64,000 bases of DNA. It comes from an uncultured Actinomycetes bacterium (lineage in GTDB: Bacteria > Actinomycetota > Thermoleophilia > Solirubrobacterales > 70-9). The DNA is taken from the NCBI GenBank assembly GCA_963782515.1, contig CAWAJY010000006.1, positions 349,988 through 413,987 of the forward strand. Reading direction: 5' to 3'. The notes below the pieces were generated by a model. That model did no database searches. It saw nothing but the letters and a program-made list of their open reading frames with translations, and was not told the origin of the DNA. A program made the position numbers and the translations under genes. Positions 1,594 to 52,780 of this stretch are shown piece after piece. Within the stretch, counting starts at the first letter, position 1, and each line of letters opens with the position of its first letter.

Positions 1594-1987
1594 AGGGACG
1601 GGGCGTTTTGAAGCCGGCGCCCGAGGTGAGGGACGCAAGGCGGTGCCGACGAGTGCGGCCGTCTCGGCCACGGCCCTGGCTGGCTGTGACCGTGGCCGAG
1701 ACGGCCGGGGCATGAAAGCTGGGTTCTCCACGGTCCGAAGCCACCGAGACGAACCCATAGACCTTGGTAGCCCTTTGGGCTACCAAGGTCTATGGGTTGG
1801 GTCCGGGCCCGACAGAAGCGTGACGAGGGTGGGAACTTCCGGGCGGACGCGTGACGGACCATCGGAGATTCACACGAGACCCTCACGGTCCAGGGCGTCT
1901 CATGGAGGTCACAGCCTGCCAGGACCTCCATGAGACGCCCAGGGCACCGCTTCTAGAACTGCCGGGGGGCCGGGAGAACGGCCGTCC
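1594..1987 (+). repeat. mosaic hairpin repeat, locus A (type I: M1-M2-M3-M4-M5)
   Basis: M2 hairpin 1657-1706. M3 perfect 19-bp hairpin 1754-1796. M4 hairpin 1893-1940 (18-bp stem). Ends in acggccgtcc. Lies between convergent gene ends (1582 / 2002). Confidence 0.85.
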
Positions 1988-5238: not shown

Positions 5239-5759
5239 GGGACGGCGGTTGTTCCGGCGGTGGCGGCCGTCCGAGGTGCGTCCTGGGCGTCTCATGGGCG
5301 GTCCTGGCAGGCTGTGACCGCCATGAGACGCCCAGGACTTGAGGGGTTCGTGAAGCAGCCGGCACACCTCGGCCGGATCGGTGACGAAGATGCCGGGAAG
5401 GTCACACCCGCGTGAGCCTCCGGTCTGTCTCCGGGCCCGGGACAAGGGCCCGAGGCCTCGATGCAAGCATTGACGTCGTCATGGCGACACCAAAGCTTGC
5501 ATCGCGGTCGTGACCGTTGGACAACACGCACGGAAGCGTGGAGTTCCCACGGTCTCCGTGACGAGGTACGTCTTCCGTGACGGATCCGTGTCCCTCCCGT
5601 GACGAACCCGGGGCACCGTCGCGAGAGATCCGCCACTCCCCGCACTCCCGGCCGTCTCGGCCACGGCCACAGCCGGCCAGGGCCGTGGCCGAGACGGCCA
5701 CGCTCGCCGCCGGCCCTTGCGTCCCTTGCCCGGGCGCCGGCTTCAGACGGCCCCGTCCC
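5239..5759 (-). repeat. mosaic hairpin repeat, locus B (type II, reverse orientation)
   Basis: M5 5239-5275. M4 5280-5338. Conserved small hairpin 5381-5405. Variable hairpin VH1 5460-5503. Conserved core 5504-5610. M2 5650-5699. M1 5700-5759. Lies between the zwf stop and the efeU start. Confidence 0.85.
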
Positions 5760-9229: not shown

Positions 9230-9268
9230 CGTCAACCCGCCGGGGGAGTCCCTAGCCTGGGACGGTCC

Positions 9269-10888
9269 ATGGATGAGACCGCACAGATGAGCTTGGGTTC
9301 CTCCCCCGGCGGGGCCACGCCCGCCTCTCCCGGCGAGCGCGCCGACGCGTTGCTCGCGGAGCTCGGGTACGCCGAGTGGCGGGCGGGGCAGCGCGAGGCG
9401 GTGATCGCCGCCCTCGAGGGTCGCGATTCCCTGATCGTGATGCCGACCGGCGGCGGCAAGAGCCTCTGCTACCAGCTGCCGGGGCTGGCCTCCGACGATC
9501 TGACGATCGTCGTCAGCCCGCTGATCGCGCTGATGCGGGACCAGTGGCTGCGGCTGACCCAGGCCGGGCACCCGGTGGCGATGGTCTCCTCGGCGATGGA
9601 CGAGGGGGACACCTGGGACGCCCTGGAGAGCGTCCGCAACGGACGGGCGAAGATCGTCTACTGCGCACCGGAGCGCTTCGCCTCGCGGGTCTTCCTCGAC
9701 GCGATCGGGCAGCGCAAGGTCGACCTGCTGGCGGTCGACGAGGCCCACTGCGTCTCCGAGTGGGGGCACGACTTCCGCCCCGACTACCTGCGCCTGCCGC
9801 AGATCGCCGAGCGGCTCGGCCGGCCGACGGTGATGGCCTGCACGGCGACGGCGACGGTGCCGGTCGCGGTGGAGATCGCGCAGCGCTTCGAGATGCGGGA
9901 GCCACTGCGGGTGCGGGCGGGCTTCGACCGTCCCAACATCTCCTTCGACGTGATCGCGCTGGAGGGCAAGGGCTCCAAGGCGCGCCGCCAGGCGCTGCTG
10001 GAGACCGGGCTCGCCGACCCCGCCAACCGCCCCGCGATCGTCTACTGCGGCACCCGCAAGGACACCGACGAGGTCGCCGGAGAGCTGCGCTCGACCGGCC
10101 TGCGGGCGCTGGCCTACCACGCCGGGATGGAAGGCAACGAGCGCTCGATCGTCCAGCGGCGCTTCATGTCCGGCGGCGAGGACGCGGTCGACGTGGTCGT
10201 CGCCACCAACGCCTTCGGCATGGGAGTCGACAAGGCCGACGTGCGGTCGGTCTGGCACATGGCGATCCCGACCTCGGTCGAGGCCTACTACCAGGAGGCC
10301 GGGCGCGCCGGGCGCGACGGCCTGCCCTCGCGAGCCGTGATGCTGGCGATGAAGGCCGATCTCGGGCGGCTCGTGCGCTTCAACGAACAGCGGGCGAACG
10401 ACCCGGAGCTGGCGATCGCCCACGAGCGCGGCTGGCGTGCCTACCACGCGATCAAAGACTTCATCTACGGCACCCGCTGCCGCCGCGTCGCGCTGCTCGC
10501 CCACTTCGGCGACCGCCGCGCCGAGACCCCTCCCCTCGGCCGCTGCTGCGACATCTGCGACATGCTCGACTGGCTGCCCGACCCGGACACGATCGCCGTC
10601 CGCAAGCCGGCCCGCGCCGCCGGCACCTCCACCCCGGCCCCCGACCTCTCCCCCGGCGACGAACCCCTCTTCGAGGCCCTGAAGAAGTGGCGCCTCCAGG
10701 TTGCCGAAGGCAAGCCCGCCTACACGGTGGCGAACAACAAGACCTTGGCCTCGATCGCCGCCCGCCGCCCCACCGGCCGCCCGGCGCTGATCGAGATCTC
10801 CGGCGTCGGCCCCGCCTTCGTCAGCAAGTACGCCGAGGACGTGCTGGCCCTGGTCGCCGAGCACGACGAGTCGCAGCTGGCGGCTTAG
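9269..10888 (+). CDS. recQ: ATP-dependent DNA helicase RecQ
   Basis: PTGGGKSLCYQLP Walker A. DEAHCVSEWGHDFRPDY. A Cys-rich Zn module (CRRVALLAHFGD...CCDICD). C-terminal HRDC-like segment. Confidence 0.85.
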   Translation: MDETAQMSLGSSPGGATPASPGERADALLAELGYAEWRAGQREAVIAALEGRDSLIVMPTGGGKSLCYQLPGLASDDLTIVVSPLIALMRDQWLRLTQAGHPVAMVSSAMDEGDTWDALESVRNGRAKIVYCAPERFASRVFLDAIGQRKVDLLAVDEAHCVSEWGHDFRPDYLRLPQIAERLGRPTVMACTATATVPVAVEIAQRFEMREPLRVRAGFDRPNISFDVIALEGKGSKARRQALLETGLADPANRPAIVYCGTRKDTDEVAGELRSTGLRALAYHAGMEGNERSIVQRRFMSGGEDAVDVVVATNAFGMGVDKADVRSVWHMAIPTSVEAYYQEAGRAGRDGLPSRAVMLAMKADLGRLVRFNEQRANDPELAIAHERGWRAYHAIKDFIYGTRCRRVALLAHFGDRRAETPPLGRCCDICDMLDWLPDPDTIAVRKPARAAGTSTPAPDLSPGDEPLFEALKKWRLQVAEGKPAYTVANNKTLASIAARRPTGRPALIEISGVGPAFVSKYAEDVLALVAEHDESQLAA

Positions 10889-10915: not shown

Positions 10916-11115
10916 GTCCCCGTTTGACGAGGGTAACGGGGACTCCACACTGCCGGATTCAGCGCTGCAGTCCTTACTGTCGCCATAGCGCCTACAAAGC
11001 TTGCAGCGCTGTCGTGAGTGTTGGACAACACGCACGGGAGCGTGGACTTCCTACGCTCTCTGTGACGATCCCTCGTCACTCCCCGCGGGCGCCGGCTTCA
11101 AGCGCCCCCTTCCGT
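10916..11115 (-). repeat. mosaic hairpin repeat, locus C (truncated type II; lacks M2 and M4)
   Basis: 9-bp hairpin 10916-10943. VH1 10960-11011. Conserved core 11012-11080 (gtgttggacaacacgcacgggagcgtggacttcc...). M1 remnant 11081-11115. Lies between the recQ stop and the MBL-hydrolase start. Confidence 0.75.
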
Positions 11116-13673: not shown

Positions 13674-14658
13674 GCACCGCGAGGCTTTCGCTGTAGTTCT
13701 GGATCCGGTAGTTCGAGGTCGAGCCGAAGTCCTGGTAGTAGACGAGCATCTTCGTCCGCGGGTGGGCTTTCACCCAGGCAAAGAGGTGGGAGACGAAGCT
13801 CGGGTCGTCGCCCGCTTCGACGCCCCACTCGGTGATCGCGAAGGGCTTGTCGGGATAGCGTTCGTACAGCTTCGTCAGCGCGCCCCATTCGGGATAGGAG
13901 GCGTAGAAGTCGGTGCCGGTCCAGTCGACCCAGCGGTCGCCCGGGTAGAAGTTCTGCGGCAGGTTCTTCTTCGTCGTCGGCGACCCGGAGGGCAGCGGGC
14001 TCCAGACGATCGCCACCGGCGCCTTCGGCAGCCCGCCGACGGTCGCGTTCAGCGGCGGCAGCCCGGCTTCGGCGAGGCGCGCGTTGATGAGCTTGGCCTT
14101 GCCGCCGCCGTGGACGATCACGTATATGCGGCGGAACGCGCGCCGGTAGTTGCGGGCCGAATCGGCGGCCGAGCGCGGGTGCCCGGCGCATTCGAGGGCG
14201 GCGTAGACGTTGAGGCAGCGGTTCGGCTCGCCCAGCGGCCGCACGTAGGCGCGCATGTGCTTTTCGGCGAAGAGCTTGTTCAGGCGGATCAGGAAGCTGT
14301 CGCCGGCGCCGCGGGCGATCTGCGCCAGGGTCAGGATCTCGGCGCCCGTCTGCGGGTCGGCGGTGGTGATGTGGACCATCGGCCGGGCGCGGGCGATCTG
14401 CCAGCGCTGGATCGAGTTGCGGATTTCCGACCCCCAGGCCCGGAAGGACTCGATCACCGCCGGGTGCTTGGACACCGCTTCGGAGAATTCGCCGAACGAC
14501 GCCGGGTCGCCGGTGTCGGAGACGCCGAAGTAGATCTGCTTCCCCTTCGGTTCGAGCACCCCCGCCGAGGCACTCCCCGCCGCCACGCCGAGCGCCGCCA
14601 CCACGAGGGCGACGACGAGTGCCGCTGCTGCGGCCCGCGTGCGGTTGGTGCCGTTCAT
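13579..14658 (-). CDS. secreted GH26-like glycoside hydrolase
   Basis: Start taken at MNGTNRTRAAAAALVV (signal peptide). YPGDRWVDWTGTDFYA and FAITEWG motifs resemble GH26 mannanase-type enzymes. Family call is from memory. Confidence 0.5.
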   Translation of the reverse strand: MNGTNRTRAAAAALVVALVVAALGVAAGSASAGVLEPKGKQIYFGVSDTGDPASFGEFSEAVSKHPAVIESFRAWGSEIRNSIQRWQIARARPMVHITTADPQTGAEILTLAQIARGAGDSFLIRLNKLFAEKHMRAYVRPLGEPNRCLNVYAALECAGHPRSAADSARNYRRAFRRIYVIVHGGGKAKLINARLAEAGLPPLNATVGGLPKAPVAIVWSPLPSGSPTTKKNLPQNFYPGDRWVDWTGTDFYASYPEWGALTKLYERYPDKPFAITEWGVEAGDDPSFVSHLFAWVKAHPRTKMLVYYQDFGSTSNYRIQNYSESLAVLTARLHDGRFPAYAPGAPHLPPPPPGGVAPE

Positions 14659-14825
14659 CGGGATGCCGGGGCCGGCCGAGGAGACGCGCCTTGCCGGGCA
14701 GCGCCCCATGCTGCCAAGCGCGACCCGCCGGGCGAGGCTCACCGGGGCACCCTGCAACGCTCGTTGCGCCCCGCTGAGGTGCGGACCCGAGGCAAGCCGC
14801 CGGGGGGAGCCCTAGGAGGTGGAAA

Positions 14826-15375
14826 GGGACGGGGAAGGGACGCTGGCCGTCTCGTCCACGGCCCTGGCTGGCTGTGGCCGTGGCCGAGACGGCCGGGGAT
14901 GTGAGGAGTGGCGGGGATCGCCCACGCGAGCGCCACGGGTTCGTCACGGCAGGGACACGGATCCGTCACGGGACTCGCATCTCGTGACGGAGAGCGTGGG
15001 AAGTCCACGCTTCCGCGCGTGTTGTCCAACGCTCACGACCGCGCTGCAGTACTTGAAGGCGCTATAGCGCCAGTAAGGACTGCAGCGCTGGATCCGGCCC
15101 TCTTTCCAGGCCCGGAAAGCGCCCGAAGGTGCCCGAAGGCCGCGGGAAGTGTGTAGTTCCCGGCATCTTCGTCAACGATCGGGGTGAGGTGTGGCATCTC
15201 TCGCGCGCACCCTTGACGTAAGCCCGACCTCGGCCCGTCCCTGCGCCAGAACCCACACGAACCCCTCACGTCCTGGGCGTCTCATCGCGGTCACAGCCAG
15301 CCAGGACCGCGATGAGACGCCCAGGACGCACATAGGACTGCCGCGACGGCAGGGAGAGCGGGACAACGCCCGTCC
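14826..15375 (+). repeat. mosaic hairpin repeat, locus D (type II, forward)
   Basis: Short M1 14826-14844. M2 14845-14894 (19-bp arms, loop CTGGCTGGCTGT). Core 14930-15040. VH1 15041-15088. M4 15269-15328 (perfect 24-bp stem, loop ACAGCCAGCCAG). M5-like end 15335-15375. Confidence 0.85.
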
Positions 15376-15381
15376 GCGACC

Positions 15382-16077
15382 TCAGCTCCCGTCCGGCGGC
15401 TCCCAGAACTGCATCGCGCCGGCGACGGCGAAGCAGACGGCGCCGCCGAAGGTTCCCCAGTTGGCGATGCCGACGGCGATCATGTCGCCGTCGGCGCGGA
15501 CGAAGGAGGCGACGCCGGAGACCATGAAGAGGACCGAGCCGACCTGGTTGACGAAGACGATCCACCAGCCGAGGCCCTCGCCGCGCAGGCGCCACCAGGA
15601 GCCGGAGATGTCGACCATCGCGAGGAAGCCGGAGATGAGGAAGAGGAGGCAGCCGATGATGTCCGGGTTCCAGACCAGGCGGTCCTCCTGGGTCGGCGTG
15701 AGGTTGCCGAGCAGGGAATCGATGAGGTTGATGCCGAAGACGATGGTCCCGGCGAAGAGGACGGCGGCGGCGAGGTAGTCGATGTTGCCCGGTTCACGCG
15801 CCCACCAACGCCAGCGGTCCCCCGCCCAGGAGCCGTCCCGGCGGCGATGCGGGGCGTTGATCGCCAGCAGCACCGAGGCGTAACCGCCGGTGGAGAAGAA
15901 GACGCCGCCGACGAGGTAGACGACCGCGGCGAGGCGCGGCCCACCGATGTCGGCCTGGGCCAGGAGGGCGCCGATCGCGAAGAGCGAGCCGCCGAGGAGG
16001 AACGCCCCGGCCGCGACCGCGTTCGCTCTACGGAGCGGTGAAGGTGGCCGGGTCGGGGCCGATGCGATGGCCGGCAT
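15382..16077 (-). CDS. polytopic membrane protein of unknown function (YrhK-like)
   Basis: 231 aa with about 6 hydrophobic helices. The only canonical start (ATG 16077) overlaps the AKR gene 3' end by 50 nt. Confidence 0.5.
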   Translation of the reverse strand: MPAIASAPTRPPSPLRRANAVAAGAFLLGGSLFAIGALLAQADIGGPRLAAVVYLVGGVFFSTGGYASVLLAINAPHRRRDGSWAGDRWRWWAREPGNIDYLAAAVLFAGTIVFGINLIDSLLGNLTPTQEDRLVWNPDIIGCLLFLISGFLAMVDISGSWWRLRGEGLGWWIVFVNQVGSVLFMVSGVASFVRADGDMIAVGIANWGTFGGAVCFAVAGAMQFWEPPDGS

Positions 16078-24507: not shown

Positions 24508-25124
24508 GGGACGTAGGGTCGACCGCGGTGGAGGTTCGGGCCTCGCAAGCCGGCGCCCCGGGACAAAGGACGCAAGGGCCTGCGGCGAGCGCGGCCGTCT
24601 CGGCCACGGCCCTGGCCGGCTGTGGCCGCGGCCGAGACGGCCGGGTCTTGTGGGGAGTGACGAGGATCGTCGGGTGCGGGTCACGCGGGCGCATAAGAGG
24701 GACGCGGGTCCCGCGAGGCGCACGGGAGGCACACGGATCCGTGACGGAAGCCGTACCTCGTCACGGAGACCGTGGGAACTCCACGCTTCCGTGCGTCTCG
24801 TCCGACGGTCACGGAGGCGCGGGCGACCCTGGTTACGCATAGGTTCACTCAGGTCGCCCGCACTCCCGGGGACCTCGATCCCGGTGCCGGGAGGTGACCC
24901 GGAGCGCACGGGGGTGTGACGTTCCCGGCATCTTCGTCACGGATCGGGGCGAGGTCGGGGTAGGTGTGGGCTCTCCCCGGCTTCTCTCGCGCGGGAGGGT
25001 GACGGATGTTTCACGAACCCCTCACGTCCTGGGCGTCTCATGGCGGTCACAGCCTGCCAGGACCGCCATGAGACGCCCAGGACCGATCTCGGACGGCCGG
25101 GGCGGCCGGAAGCACGGCCGTCCC
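24508..25124 (+). repeat. mosaic hairpin repeat, locus E (type II, forward, longest copy)
   Basis: M1 24508-24592 (with an insertion). M2 24593-24642. Core with cacggatccgtg palindrome 24730-24815. VH1 24819-24861. Small conserved hairpin 24916-24940. M4 25026-25083 (23-bp perfect stem). M5 25090-25124. Lies between convergent gene ends. Confidence 0.85.
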
Positions 25125-27681: not shown

Positions 27682-28099
27682 GGGACGGGCCGGAGGAAGC
27701 CGGCGCCCGAGGTGAGGGACGCAAGGGCTGGCGGCGAGCGCGGCCGTCTCGGCCACGGCCCTGGCCGGCTGTGGCCGCGGCCGAGACGGCCGGGTATGAA
27801 AGCGGCGGAGGAACCGTGACGTCGATGAGGGAGACGCCACGAAGTCCACACTTCCTCCCGGGTTCTTCCACTGTCCGACGCCGCCGCCGGCAACCCTTAG
27901 ACCTTGGTAGCCCTGTGGGCTACCAAGGTCTAAGGGTTGGGTTCCGGCCCATCGAGGCAATCACGGGAGTCCGGACTTCGTGCCGTCCCTGTGCCCGTTG
28001 TTTCACGAACCCCTCACGTCCTGGGCGTCTCATGGCGGTCCTGGCAAGCTGTGACAGCCATGAGACGCCCAGGACCGATCTCGGACGGCCGGAGCGGCC
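27682..28099 (+). repeat. mosaic hairpin repeat, locus G (type I: M1-M2-core fragment-M3-M4-truncated M5)
   Basis: M1 27682-27741. M2 27742-27791. M3 27894-27936 (loop ctgtg). M4 28018-28075 with an inverted loop (ctggcaagctgt). The M5 stub 28082-28099 runs into the stop codon of the RibBA-like gene. Confidence 0.85.
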
Positions 28100-29187
28100 T
28101 AGATCGCGGTGTCGACGCAGCGGGAGCCCGAGCGCCTGCGGGGAGCGGTGCGGGGGCGGGCCACCTCGACGCCGCGCTCGCGCAGTGGGGCTGCCTGGGC
28201 GGGGTCGAGGGGGAGGACCGAGGCCGGTGCGAGCTCGTCGAGGGTGGCGGCGGCCAGGTCGAAGGTGCGGGGGTCCTCCGGGTCGACATCGCGAAGGTGG
28301 ATGAGGATCCCGGCCTCGGCGCGGGCGAAGCGTCGCAGGAGGGCGACCAGGCTGCTCTCGCCGGTCGGGGCGAGGGTGGTGATGAGGTCGTCGATCGGCG
28401 AGGAGGCGCGGATCGCCAGGGGCACCTCCCGGCGACCCTCGACCTCGCCGCGGACCAGCGCCGCGTGCGCCTCGCCGGTCACCTCGTTGGTCAGGCTGAC
28501 CGCGGTGAAGGCCCCGTGCTGGGTGACGACCCTCCGGCGCTCGGTCGCCCGGACCGGCCGCTCGGCCGCGATCCGGCGGGCGGCGACCTCGGTGACCGTG
28601 ACCAGGGGCAGGTGGCGCTCGGCGGCGGTGGCGCGGACCTCGGCCGCGCTCGCGGTCCGACCGGCCTCATCGAGCATCGCGCAGATCGCCGCCGCCCCGG
28701 TGCCACCGGCGAGCCGGACCAGATCGACGGCCGCCTCGGGCGCCCCGCGCGCGGCGAAGACGCCCGCGTCGGCGGCGATCAGCGGCGGCACGTGGCCGGG
28801 GACCACGAGGTCGGAGGACCGCGTCGCCGGGTCGGCGACGACCCGCGCGGTGTTCGCCCGCTCGGCCGCCGAGATCCCGGTCGTCGTCCCCACCCGCGCG
28901 TCCACCGACGCCGCGATCCGCCGCGCCCGACCGCCGGCCGCCGGCCGCCGGCTCCCGATCGGGGAACCAGCGTGCGCGGTGCCGGTGCGGGGCTGCTGCT
29001 CGGGGAGGTTCAGCTCACCGGCGCGGCCGGCGGCGAGGACGACGGAGAAGATCCCGCCGCCCGCGTCGAGCATCGCGACGACGTCCTCGGTGCTCGTGCC
29101 GCGGGCGTCGCGGAGGAGGTGGCCGACGCCCTCGTCGTCAAGCAGGACCACGATCTCACCGCGGGCGATGGCCTCGATCGCCGTCAC
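28099..29187 (-). CDS. RibBA-like protein (DHBP synthase / GTP cyclohydrolase II fold) with degenerate catalytic motifs
   Basis: 362 aa, GTG start in a GTGA overlap with the crotonase stop. Retains VPGHVPPL and EAAVDLVRLAG. The acidic DEDRENEGD loop is replaced by LDDEGVGHLL. The GCH-II Cys cluster is absent. Confidence 0.55.
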   Translation of the reverse strand: MTAIEAIARGEIVVLLDDEGVGHLLRDARGTSTEDVVAMLDAGGGIFSVVLAAGRAGELNLPEQQPRTGTAHAGSPIGSRRPAAGGRARRIAASVDARVGTTTGISAAERANTARVVADPATRSSDLVVPGHVPPLIAADAGVFAARGAPEAAVDLVRLAGGTGAAAICAMLDEAGRTASAAEVRATAAERHLPLVTVTEVAARRIAAERPVRATERRRVVTQHGAFTAVSLTNEVTGEAHAALVRGEVEGRREVPLAIRASSPIDDLITTLAPTGESSLVALLRRFARAEAGILIHLRDVDPEDPRTFDLAAATLDELAPASVLPLDPAQAAPLRERGVEVARPRTAPRRRSGSRCVDTAI

Positions 29188-29963
29188 CGTCCGGTCCAGA
29201 CCGGCGCCCGCTTCTCGGCGAACGCGGCGGCGCCCTCGCGGGCGTCAGCGGACCCCATGATCAGCTGGATGAAATCCTCCTGGCGCGTCCACGCCTCGGC
29301 CTCCGGCAGCTCGACCAGCTCGTCGACGATCTGCTTGGAGACGCGCACCGCGAGCGGCCCGTTGGCGGCGATCTTCGCGGCGAGCGCGAGCGCCTCGGCG
29401 AGCGCGCCACCGTCCTCGCAGACCCGGTTGACCAGGCCGAGCTCGTAACCGCGCCCGGCGTCGACCAGCTCGCCGGTCAGCGCCAGCTCCATCGCCACGT
29501 GGCGGGGAATCCGCCGCGGCAGGCGGAAGAGCGCCCCGGCGCCGGCGATCAACCCCCGCTGCGTCTCCGGGATGCCGAGCCGGGCGCCCCGCCCGGCGAC
29601 GATCAGGTCGCAGGACAGCGCGACCTCGAGGCCGCCGGCGACGGCGAAGCCCTCGACCGCGGCGATCATCGGCTTGGCCGGCGGGCGCTCGCAGATCCCG
29701 GCGAACCCACGGCCGCCCGCGTGCGGCGTCTCGCCGCGCAGGAACGCCTTCAGGTCCATGCCCGAGCAGAACCCCTTGCCGGCGCCGGTGATGACGCCGA
29801 CCCGCAGCTCCTCCTCGGCCTCGAGCCTCTCGACCGCGGCGGCGACGCCCTCGGCCAGCGCGCCGTCCACCGCGTTGCGCGCCTCGGGCCGATTCAGGGT
29901 GACGAGCAGGACCCCGTCGCGCACCTCGGTGAGGACCGCGCCCTCGGCCCCATCGCTCCCCAT
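29184..29963 (-). CDS. enoyl-CoA hydratase/isomerase (crotonase)
   Basis: Start taken at MGSDGAEGAVLTEVRDGVLLVTLNRPEARNA. GAGKGFCSGMDL and AAVEGFAVAGG oxyanion motifs. TGATG overlap with the upstream SDR. Confidence 0.8.
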   Translation of the reverse strand: MGSDGAEGAVLTEVRDGVLLVTLNRPEARNAVDGALAEGVAAAVERLEAEEELRVGVITGAGKGFCSGMDLKAFLRGETPHAGGRGFAGICERPPAKPMIAAVEGFAVAGGLEVALSCDLIVAGRGARLGIPETQRGLIAGAGALFRLPRRIPRHVAMELALTGELVDAGRGYELGLVNRVCEDGGALAEALALAAKIAANGPLAVRVSKQIVDELVELPEAEAWTRQEDFIQLIMGSADAREGAAAFAEKRAPVWTGR

Positions 29964-44464: not shown

Positions 44465-44475
44465 GGGTCCGGGTC

Positions 44476-44760
44476 GTCTGAGGCTGGCGCCCGGAGGCGC
44501 AAGGGACGCAAGGGCTGGCGGCGAGCGCCGCCGGCAACCCTTAGACCTTGGTAGCCCACAGGGCTACCAAGGTCTAAGGGTTGGGTTCCGGTCCATCGAG
44601 GCAATCACGGAAGTCCGGAGTTCGTACCGTCCCTGTGCCGGATGCTTCACGAACCCCTCACGTCCTGGGCGTCTCATGGCGGTCACAGCCAGCCAGGACC
44701 GCCATGAGACGCCCAGGACCGATCTCGGACGGGTGCCGCGGCCGCGAAGCATGCCGTCCC
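44476..44760 (+). repeat. mosaic hairpin repeat, locus H (type I lacking M2)
   Basis: M1 44476-44527. M3 44538-44580 (loop cacag, flipped relative to locus G). M4 44662-44719 (23-bp perfect stem). M5 44726-44760. Confidence 0.85.
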
Positions 44761-44885
44761 CCGCCCCCCCCAAGCCCTTGTAGAAACCCCCAACCCCCCT
44801 CTCGCGCCGCACCTCGCGCGCGGCTACGTTCTGGCGCACAGGACGAGACCGCGCGGGTGGGACCCGGGCGGAGAGGAGGAGCGAC

Positions 44886-52168: not shown

Positions 52169-52186
52169 GATGATCGATTCCACGGG

Positions 52187-52780
52187 GGGACGGGCGGGCG
52201 TGCTTCGGGGCGTCGCGTCCGTCCGAGTTGCGTCCTGGGCGTCTCATGGCGGTCCTGGCTGGCTGTGACCGCCATGAGACGCCCAGGACGTGAGGGGCTC
52301 GTGAAACATCCCGGCACACCTCGCCCCGATCTGTGACGAAGATTCCGGGAACGTCACACCCGCGTGAGCCTTCGGTCCGTCTCCGGGCCCTCGAGAGAGG
52401 GCCCGGAGACGCGCTGCATGCGTTGACCGTGCCATGGCACGGTCAACGCATGCAGCGCGGTCGTGACCGTTGGACGACACGCACCGAAGCGTGGAGTTCC
52501 CACGGTCTTCGTGACGAGGTCGGGGATCGGTGACGGATCCGTGACCCTCCCGTGACGAACCCGAGGCGCTCGCCCGGGCGATCCCGCCACTCCCCACATC
52601 CCCGGCCGTCTCGGCCACGGCCACAGCCAGCCAGGGCCGTGGCCGAGACGGCCGCGCTCGCCGCAAGCCCTTGCGTCCCTTGCCTCGGGCGCCAGCTTGA
52701 AACCGCCCCGAGCCCTTGGAATCAACCTTCTGACGGGCGTGCCCCCGGCCGCAGCGGCCGTCCGAGTTGCGTCCTGGGCG
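52187..52780 (-). repeat. mosaic hairpin repeat, locus F (type II reverse, plus a truncated second copy)
   Basis: M5 52187-52227. M4 52231-52290 (perfect 24-bp stem). Small hairpin 52334-52357. VH2 52379-52410 (perfect 14 bp). VH1 52411-52458 (48-nt perfect palindrome). M2 52604-52653. M1 52654-52716. Extra M5 plus a 10-nt M4 stub 52732-52780. Confidence 0.85.

Follow-up and report, generated by a model that had tools for sequence, protein, structure and literature searches.

The 64,000-nucleotide (nt) stretch of DNA analyzed here (the window; G+C content, 70.5%) comes from an uncultured actinobacterium of the Solirubrobacterales and contains seven copies and two remnants of a mosaic, noncoding intergenic repeat of 0.3 to 0.6 kb. 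The genes flanking these copies (pgl, zwf, gnd, recQ, a ribBA-like gene, and genes for an FTR1 permease, MFS transporters, acyl-CoA synthetase, thiolase, and SDRs) are ordinary metabolic and transport genes. A full copy of the element begins with a left end (GAAGCYGGCGCC..AAGGGACGCAAGG; short in locus D), followed by the large hairpin M2, small hairpins, the central palindrome M3, more small hairpins, the large hairpin M4, and the right-end hairpin M5, and in all it strings together about nine hairpins, which show compensated changes. The stems of the small internal hairpins are recurrent GTCACG/CGTGAC motifs, and internal modules are missing or exchanged in short copies. M2 and M4 lie about 50 nt inside the two ends of the element and are spaced 235 to 530 nt apart, with a linker of 190 to 480 nt. 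An outermost terminal repeat, GGGACGG...CCGTCCC, is present in only a subset of the copies, and the outer ends are ragged. Beyond the window, the repeat is scattered through Solirubrobacterales-like Actinomycetota, where it is intergenic and mostly located 3' of genes. We propose, with about even confidence, that M2 and M4 are diverged inverted modules whose invariant loop is read by one putative protein on a folded single strand.

The paired loops were examined at locus D. M2 has 19-bp arms with one mismatch, M4 has 24-bp arms that are all matched, and their 12-nt loops, CTGGCTGGCTGT and ACAGCCAGCCAG, are exact reverse complements, as an earlier note on this DNA had reported. A box, CCCCTCAC, stands before M4, and its continuation, GTCC, is the outer stem of M4. 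Both hairpins of locus D were far more stable as single strands than shuffled controls. The DNA folding energies of M2 were -23.2 kcal/mol on the plus strand and -25.3 kcal/mol on the minus strand (z = -6.4 and -7.2), and that of M4 was -33.9 kcal/mol (z = -11). The loops of loci F, B, and E were also as that note had described them, and three loci absent from it, A (both loops), G (M2 loop), and H (M4 only), carry the same pattern. In the whole window, the loop pattern CTGGCNGGCTGT occurs 12 times against 0.04 expected, a number reached in none of 100 shuffles, and each time it forms the 12-nt loop of a hairpin of the M2 or M4 type. In total, 13 hairpins of 50 to 60 nt lie in the window, every one of them intergenic.

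Loop invariance and inverted homology of M2 and M4

To survey the loop beyond the window, public genomes were scanned with the outer 11 bp of each M4 arm, and the inner stem and loop were left unspecified. Among the 73 matches listed, 71 were M4 hairpins with loops at most one substitution from CTGGC[A/T/C]GGCTGT, on inner stems of three compensated versions (GGCGGTC, CGCGGTC, and GGAGGTC). One complete 3.8-Mb chromosome of a Solirubrobacterales metagenome-assembled genome (MAG) carried at least 42 of these stretches (42 among 72 listed), and the other matches came from several more Actinomycetota MAGs and two contigs binned as Proteobacteria. A loop-free M2 pattern recovered 53 hairpins from the window and the flanks of the M4 matches; about 45 had the exact loop motif, and the rest were off by one or two noncentral positions. 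When metagenomes were scanned with the outer M2 stem only, 66 hairpins of M2 length were found, nearly all with loops that differ from C[T/G]GGCNGGCTGT by at most two substitutions. Altogether, the loop-unspecified searches added more than 200 hairpins, which came from MAGs of Solirubrobacterales and other Actinomycetota and from soil metagenomes.

Eleven of the loop bases were the same across at least five MAGs and many soil metagenomes. Every noncentral loop position was at least 95% conserved among 123 hairpins, and the central position could be any base. The loops were more conserved than other parts of the element: when 19 full-length copies from five or more genomes were aligned, the mean column identity was 58%; the M2 loop was invariant at all 11 specified positions, and the M4 loop was invariant at 9 of 11, with the other two at 90% or more. 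In the 604 kb examined first, the loop motif occurred 122 times, of which 120 were in hairpins. The earlier note had allowed that the loops might prove unconstrained in more copies, and in this survey they are constrained. The searches also returned other hairpins. Several metagenome loci (L101, L106, L149, L151, L185, and others) carry a different family with the outer stem GGCCGTCTCG...CGAGACGGCC and an unrelated interior, TGCACAGGTTGAGAGAG-TCC-CTCTCTCAACCTGTGCA, and yet another family among them has the interior AAGGATGG...CCATCCTT; both may be distant relatives or may share a 10-bp arm by chance.

The loops had been described as standing on unrelated stems, which proved wrong. The M2 arm (GGCCGTCTC-GGCCAC-GGCC) and the M4 arm (GGGCGTCTC-ATGGC-GGTC) are alike at 14 of 18 to 19 positions, a score equaled in 0.3% of shuffles, and have in common the stem base GGNCGTCTC and the loop-side top GGYC. 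The likeness extends about 13 nt past the foot of the hairpin on its inner side, into a C-rich box, CCCC(T)CAC(R)TCC. On the strand with the loop ACAGCCNGCCAG, the box reads CCCCTCACGTCC before M4 and CCCCACATCCCC before M2, and the module consists, in order, of this box, the stem base, 5 to 6 freely covarying pairs, the top, and the 12-nt loop. Judged by these sequences, M2 and M4 are diverged copies of one hairpin module and form a subterminal inverted repeat of about 65 nt. They were mutually inverted in 77 of the 78 elements with both hairpins. Because they are homologous modules of an inverted repeat, their identical loops are primarily inherited.

The one exception is locus G, where the M4 loop (CTGGCAAGCTGT) is flipped relative to its flanks, which are in the usual orientation. 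This looks like an arm-to-arm exchange inside the palindrome and is the sole case among the 78 elements; outside locus G, the inner flanks always kept their orientation to the loops. The flipped loop of locus G additionally has one substitution, and the stem of the same hairpin has a mismatch.

The central loop base was equal in M2 and M4 in 64 of the 78 elements (T/T in 41, A/A in 22, and G/G in 1). This agreement is confounded by lineage and concerted evolution and is largely a property of the genome or subfamily. Two unequal combinations are stable subfamilies: C/A, seen in the window, and G/A, seen in one MAG. At loop position 2, a T-to-G variant did not covary between M2 and M4. Of the covariation between the two loops that the earlier note suggested looking for, only the lineage-confounded central agreement was seen, and noncentral variants did not covary.

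The stems indicate which parts of the module vary. In the middle of the M4 stem, changes are compensated (pair 5 is C-G in 57 and A-T in 15 hairpins; pair 7 is G-C in 58 and C-G in 19), and where this part varies, the stem base, the stem top, and the loop are unchanged. M3 is constant in position, with a stem of about 20 bp and a 4-nt center (often ATAG, ATGG, or TGTG), and its sequence is almost unrelated between copies, even when the copies are orthologous and have flanking genes of about 90% identity (L067/L174 and L019/L117). Because M3 is hypervariable although it is an equally good palindrome in the same element, palindromy alone does not preserve sequence.

Three pairs of loci from different genomes (L067/L174, L019/L117, and L044/L056) share both flanking genes at 81 to 93% identity and are therefore orthologous copies. 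Within these pairs, M2 and M4 were almost identical or differed through compensated stem switches, and in L019/L117, the central base was switched concordantly from T/T to A/A. In the same pairs, M3 was swapped for an unrelated palindrome, internal modules of 23 to 51 nt were present in one copy only, and each copy was similar to the consensus of its own genome. The orthologous copies show concerted evolution, with all parts but M2 and M4 turning over. Also observed are a high copy number, copies that are truncated or nested, and homogenization across the genome.

These features bear on the explanation that the element is selfish palindromic DNA with a loop that nothing reads, in which near-identity came from recent amplification of a few master copies and gene conversion between copies and between arms. 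Genome-specific variants at orthologous sites, central-base combinations common to subfamilies, the arm-to-arm exchange seen at locus G, and the many decayed or truncated copies agree with it. However, the 11 loop bases are constant across MAGs and soil metagenomes in which the rest of the element has diverged, the middle of the stem varies with compensation when the loop, base, and top do not, and M3 is hypervariable. In addition, loop orientation is held in 77 of 78 pairs despite the evidence from locus G that flips are mechanically possible, and amplification, too, requires some machinery. We therefore regard unread selfish DNA as quite unlikely.

Strand polarity and gene context

Transition-type mismatches in the stems of M2 and M4 were distributed unequally between the strands. 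On the strand with the ACAGCCNGCCAG loop (the ACAGCC-loop strand), they were mostly G·T and rarely A·C, with counts of 18 and 7 distinct position classes (binomial P of about 0.04), 42 and 8 unique sequences, and 63 and 10 copies, respectively, the events counted not being fully independent. The polarity was present in both M2 and M4. With the two hairpins inverted relative to each other and elements lying in either orientation, a bias of replication or transcription cannot account for it. It points to a hairpin that functions as a single folded strand of fixed polarity, which would lie on opposite strands at the two ends of the element.

Folding of the whole element showed no such preference. 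Element D folded equally on both strands (z = -7.36 and -7.37), the mean difference between the strands among 49 copies was -3 kcal/mol (P = 0.03 to 0.06), and RNAalifold gave -155.8 for one strand and -152.2 for the other. Equal folding on both strands argues against a one-strand RNA gene, and a one-strand structured RNA was rejected on these three results. A known RNA family was also rejected: Rfam 15 gave no match in the whole window at gathering thresholds, and at E values up to 10, locus E gave microRNA-like noise only. Positions 14600 to 15500 contained no terminator-like site, M2 and M4 were followed by no T-run on either strand, and no promoter-like consensus site was found at locus D. 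A simple terminator or promoter was thus rejected, which agrees with the view of the earlier note that such shared loops are not expected for simple terminators.

The location of the elements relative to genes was uneven. Of 53 elements, 25 were between convergent genes and 4 between divergent genes. A gene 3' end was beside the M4 side in 51 of 68 cases and beside the M2 side in 39 of 58, and the M4/M5 end was often 0 to 20 nt from a stop codon. One of the few elements located in a promoter region is on a metagenomic contig (L076:4060-4530), where a copy lies between divergent SDR and TetR genes together with a small extra gene that has an operator-like palindrome of its own; at the same place in a Solirubrobacterales MAG (L020:5480-5580), there is only an operator region of about 100 nt.

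Such a location raises the alternative of an element acting at the RNA level, as a 3'-end protector or terminator, as a site for an RNA-binding protein or RNase in read-through transcripts, or as a 12-bp kissing complex between the M2 and M4 loops, by which the whole element would be closed into a single folded domain. The position mostly 3' of genes and often next to a stop codon, the chain of hairpins with compensated changes, and the loops that are complementary on one strand by construction fit this alternative, and tolerance of G·T suits RNA at least as well as DNA. However, folding energy has no strand preference, and the favored polarity is limited to the distal hairpin of any given transcript. 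The first hairpin of a read-through transcript, the one beside the upstream gene, has the disfavored polarity, which is evidence against a plain terminator role for that gene as the origin of the constraint; the distal hairpin may still act in RNA. Orthologous copies have exchanged or lost internal modules, which is unusual for a structured RNA, and the Rfam, promoter, and T-run searches described above were negative. Loop-loop kissing supported by covariation was rejected: none of about ten noncentral loop variants was compensated in the partner, and the C/A and G/A centers are stable subfamilies. An RNA-level role is therefore rather unlikely in our view, although less so than unread selfish DNA.

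A site acting as a duplex was considered next to it, i.e., a 50- to 60-bp palindrome with an asymmetric 12-bp center, bound by a dimeric protein of the nucleoid or gyrase type or serving as one of an inverting pair like lox or FRT sites. The geometry of inverted arms around an asymmetric spacer is present, and the paired inverted sites are 235 to 530 bp apart; the BIMEs of E. coli, moreover, are bound by IHF, gyrase, and Pol I (PMC6006769). Recombination of M2 with M4 would, however, create hybrids of their arms, and a single degenerate hybrid (L061:1200) was found in 604 kb; an invertible segment flanked by lox-like sites was rejected for this reason. A duplex site would not be expected to show compensated stem changes or G·T polarity, and no recombinase gene was found nearby. 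We consider a duplex site very unlikely.

The reading we prefer remains that of a hairpin recognized as a folded single strand, whose 12-nt loop probably marks the binding site of a putative protein. The strand in use would be the top one at M4 and the bottom one at M2, and one protein, with its gene elsewhere in the genome, would make contact with the invariant loop, the stem base, and the 5' box. This protein may copy, move, or homogenize the elements, as RAYT nucleases are thought to do on REP doublets (REPINs/BIMEs), and the inverted pair would guarantee one hairpin of the right polarity on either strand. A transcription barrier or RNA-end structure for neighboring genes would be a likely side effect rather than the cause of loop conservation. 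The earlier note had proposed a shared site offered on opposite strands near both ends. The constrained, inverted loop and the mismatch polarity support that proposal, with the correction that the shared loop is first of all inherited. Its suggestion that a single protein acts at both ends is retained here as a plausible and the best interpretation, and the transposase, recombinase, or hairpin-flanked gene that might have accompanied it was not found in the 1.34 Mb sampled or in the window.

Besides the partial dependence of the mismatch events, several points weigh against the single-strand reading. Single-stranded DNA (ssDNA) and RNA are not separable from sequence alone. Template switching matches the arms of palindromes and gene conversion homogenizes copies, so that some of the apparent constraint may be mechanical. 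The 5' flank of the module is C-rich, CCCC(T)CAC(R)TCC, with no GTAG or GTGG as in REPs. The partner search covered 1.34 Mb fetched from around more than 200 hairpins and sampled about 10% of one genome. This sample contained no facing hairpins 750 to 6,000 nt apart that enclose a gene, no multicopy protein, and no open reading frame (ORF) like the TnpA of IS200/IS608, the queries for the last being approximate seed sequences. The window has no transposase or recombinase gene and no gene flanked by the same hairpins. No target-site duplication was recognizable at the ragged outer ends, and there were no clean empty sites among the fetched loci, so mobility of the element is not demonstrated.

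An autonomous master copy or RAYT-like gene was accordingly not found in this sample. One recurrent unannotated ORF has a C-terminal motif that resembles NlpC/P60 by eye, with no significant Pfam match. Four candidate empty sites (L072/window, L045/L016, L068/L030, and L020/L076) proved to be filled, nonsyntenic, or confounded by an extra gene. Phage, plasmid, and viral-contig collections had no match to the element, and an origin from a phage, plasmid, or virus was rejected.

Copies of the repeat in the window

The coordinates of the copies, their large hairpins, and M3 are listed in the table.

Table. Copies and remnants of the repeat in the 64-kb window, with loop positions in parentheses
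Copy	Extent	Strand	M2 (loop)	M3	M4 (loop)	Remarks
A	1595-1987	+	1656-1707 (1676-1687)	1750-1800	1890-1943 (1911-1922)	Short variant
B	5239-5759	-	5650-5699 (5669-5680)	5448-5500	5280-5338 (5304-5315)	Reverse orientation; one bulged base in M4 stem
Decayed copy	10926-11099	-				M3, two small hairpins, and left-end box kept; M2 and M4 both lost
D	14826-15375	+	14845-14894 (14864-14875)	15041-15088	15269-15328 (15293-15304)	Whole element
E	24547-25124	+	24592-24643 (24612-24623)	24815-24860	25026-25083 (25049-25060)
G	27682-28099	+	27741-27792 (27761-27772)	27890-27940	28018-28075 (28041-28052)	Short variant; M4 loop flipped
H	44465-44761	+		44535-44585	44662-44719 (44685-44696)	Without M2
F	52186-52715	-	52601-52656 (52623-52634)	52410-52460	52231-52290 (52255-52266)	Reverse orientation
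Remnant adjoining F	52732-52780	-				Second element; M5 and first 10 nt of M4 stem, then broken off

The remnant that abuts locus F suggests a nested or tandem insertion with a deletion afterwards. The thiolase gene beside locus F is 80% identical at the DNA level to a Solirubrobacterales MAG, which by itself places the window most likely in that group. The decayed copy lies just 3' of the recQ-like helicase gene (9230-10885). The right end of locus G is cut by the stop codon of the adjoining gene: the ribBA-like gene (28102-29244, minus strand) has its stop codon at the expected M5 site (28083-28099/28099-28101), so that the ends overlap. At other loci, the stop codon is 22 to 46 nt from M4, i.e., within M5. 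Upstream of locus A is a 268-nt direct repeat (785-1052 and 1294-1561; 71% identity) that overlaps an ORF (1067-1579) with no Pfam match.

Significance and comparison with known repeat systems

Palindromic repeats interspersed in a genome shape its rearrangements, its operon boundaries, and the ends of its mRNAs. To our knowledge, how such repeats spread and are retained by their hosts is settled for very few families, nearly all of them proteobacterial. The present family is a further case, from soil actinobacteria of a little-studied lineage, with an unusually clean signature consisting of an invariant loop on a covarying stem, fixed inverted pairing, mismatch polarity, and orthologous copies under concerted evolution. 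The 50- to 60-nt hairpin offers a defined bait for the putative protein, and the family offers a second, independent system for testing ideas about REPINs and RAYTs. For annotation, seven long intergenic regions of the window are explained, and they are not riboswitches, small RNA genes, or simple terminators.

We compared the family with the REP, BIME, and REPIN sequences of E. coli, Pseudomonas, and Stenotrophomonas and their RAYT (TnpA_REP) nucleases. REPs are extragenic hairpins of 21 to 65 nt in hundreds of copies; the basic unit of BIMEs and REPINs is two related REPs in inverted orientation, with REP subtypes Y, Z1, and Z2 and mosaic linkers, and REPs have a 5' guide tetranucleotide, GT[AG]G, and one cognate RAYT gene flanked by REPs (PMC6006769). 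The present family likewise consists of many-copy extragenic hairpins, here of 50 to 60 nt, in which two related types are paired and inverted (77 of 78), as the Y and Z REPs are. As in those repeats, the linkers are mosaic, the copies lie at the 3' ends of genes and evolve in concert within each genome, the foot of the hairpin has a conserved motif on its 5' side, and recognition appears to be on single strands. The differences are that this family has a large invariant 12-nt loop, whereas the specificity of REPs is in the stem, bulges, and guide, and that its spacing is far larger than that of BIMEs, with a linker built of conserved and hypervariable hairpins. The hosts are Thermoleophilia-type Actinomycetota, and queries with approximate Y1 seed sequences found no RAYT in the 1.34 Mb or the window.

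Bacterial MITEs (miniature inverted-repeat transposable elements) as well as modular repeats were also compared, namely Correia/NEMIS of Neisseria, BOX and RUP of Streptococcus pneumoniae, and ERIC. These are similar in being small, noncoding, and intergenic or at gene 3' ends, with inverted repeats near the ends and many truncated copies, and the modular, mosaic makeup resembles the A-B-C structure of BOX. In contrast to MITEs, the present element has ragged ends with no target duplication found, its inverted repeats are subterminal and are the hairpins themselves, and the sample yielded no parent insertion sequence (IS) that shares its ends. The ends of IS200/IS605 elements (IS608 and ISDra2) are alike in having similar subterminal hairpins at both ends, no classical terminal inverted repeats, and no duplication, and those hairpins are read as ssDNA by a protein that also uses foot-adjacent bases. 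However, both hairpins of these elements are on the same (top) strand, whereas the loop and mismatch polarity here place them on opposite strands, and no Y1 transposase or TnpB gene is inside or near the present element.

Our literature searches found no description of this repeat family, and its membership in the RAYT-associated REPs is not demonstrated. It is possible, rather than probable, that Thermoleophilia-type actinobacteria have their own, independently evolved counterpart of the REPIN-RAYT partnership. A hairpin-specific protein would then read the 12-nt loop, the stem base, and the C-rich 5' box on ssDNA, and hundreds of paired hairpins would be homogenized genome-wide while the DNA between them turns over. 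Altogether, we class the family as an undescribed interspersed palindromic, mosaic repeat of the REP/BIME/REPIN or MITE kind, which appears to work most like REP doublets.

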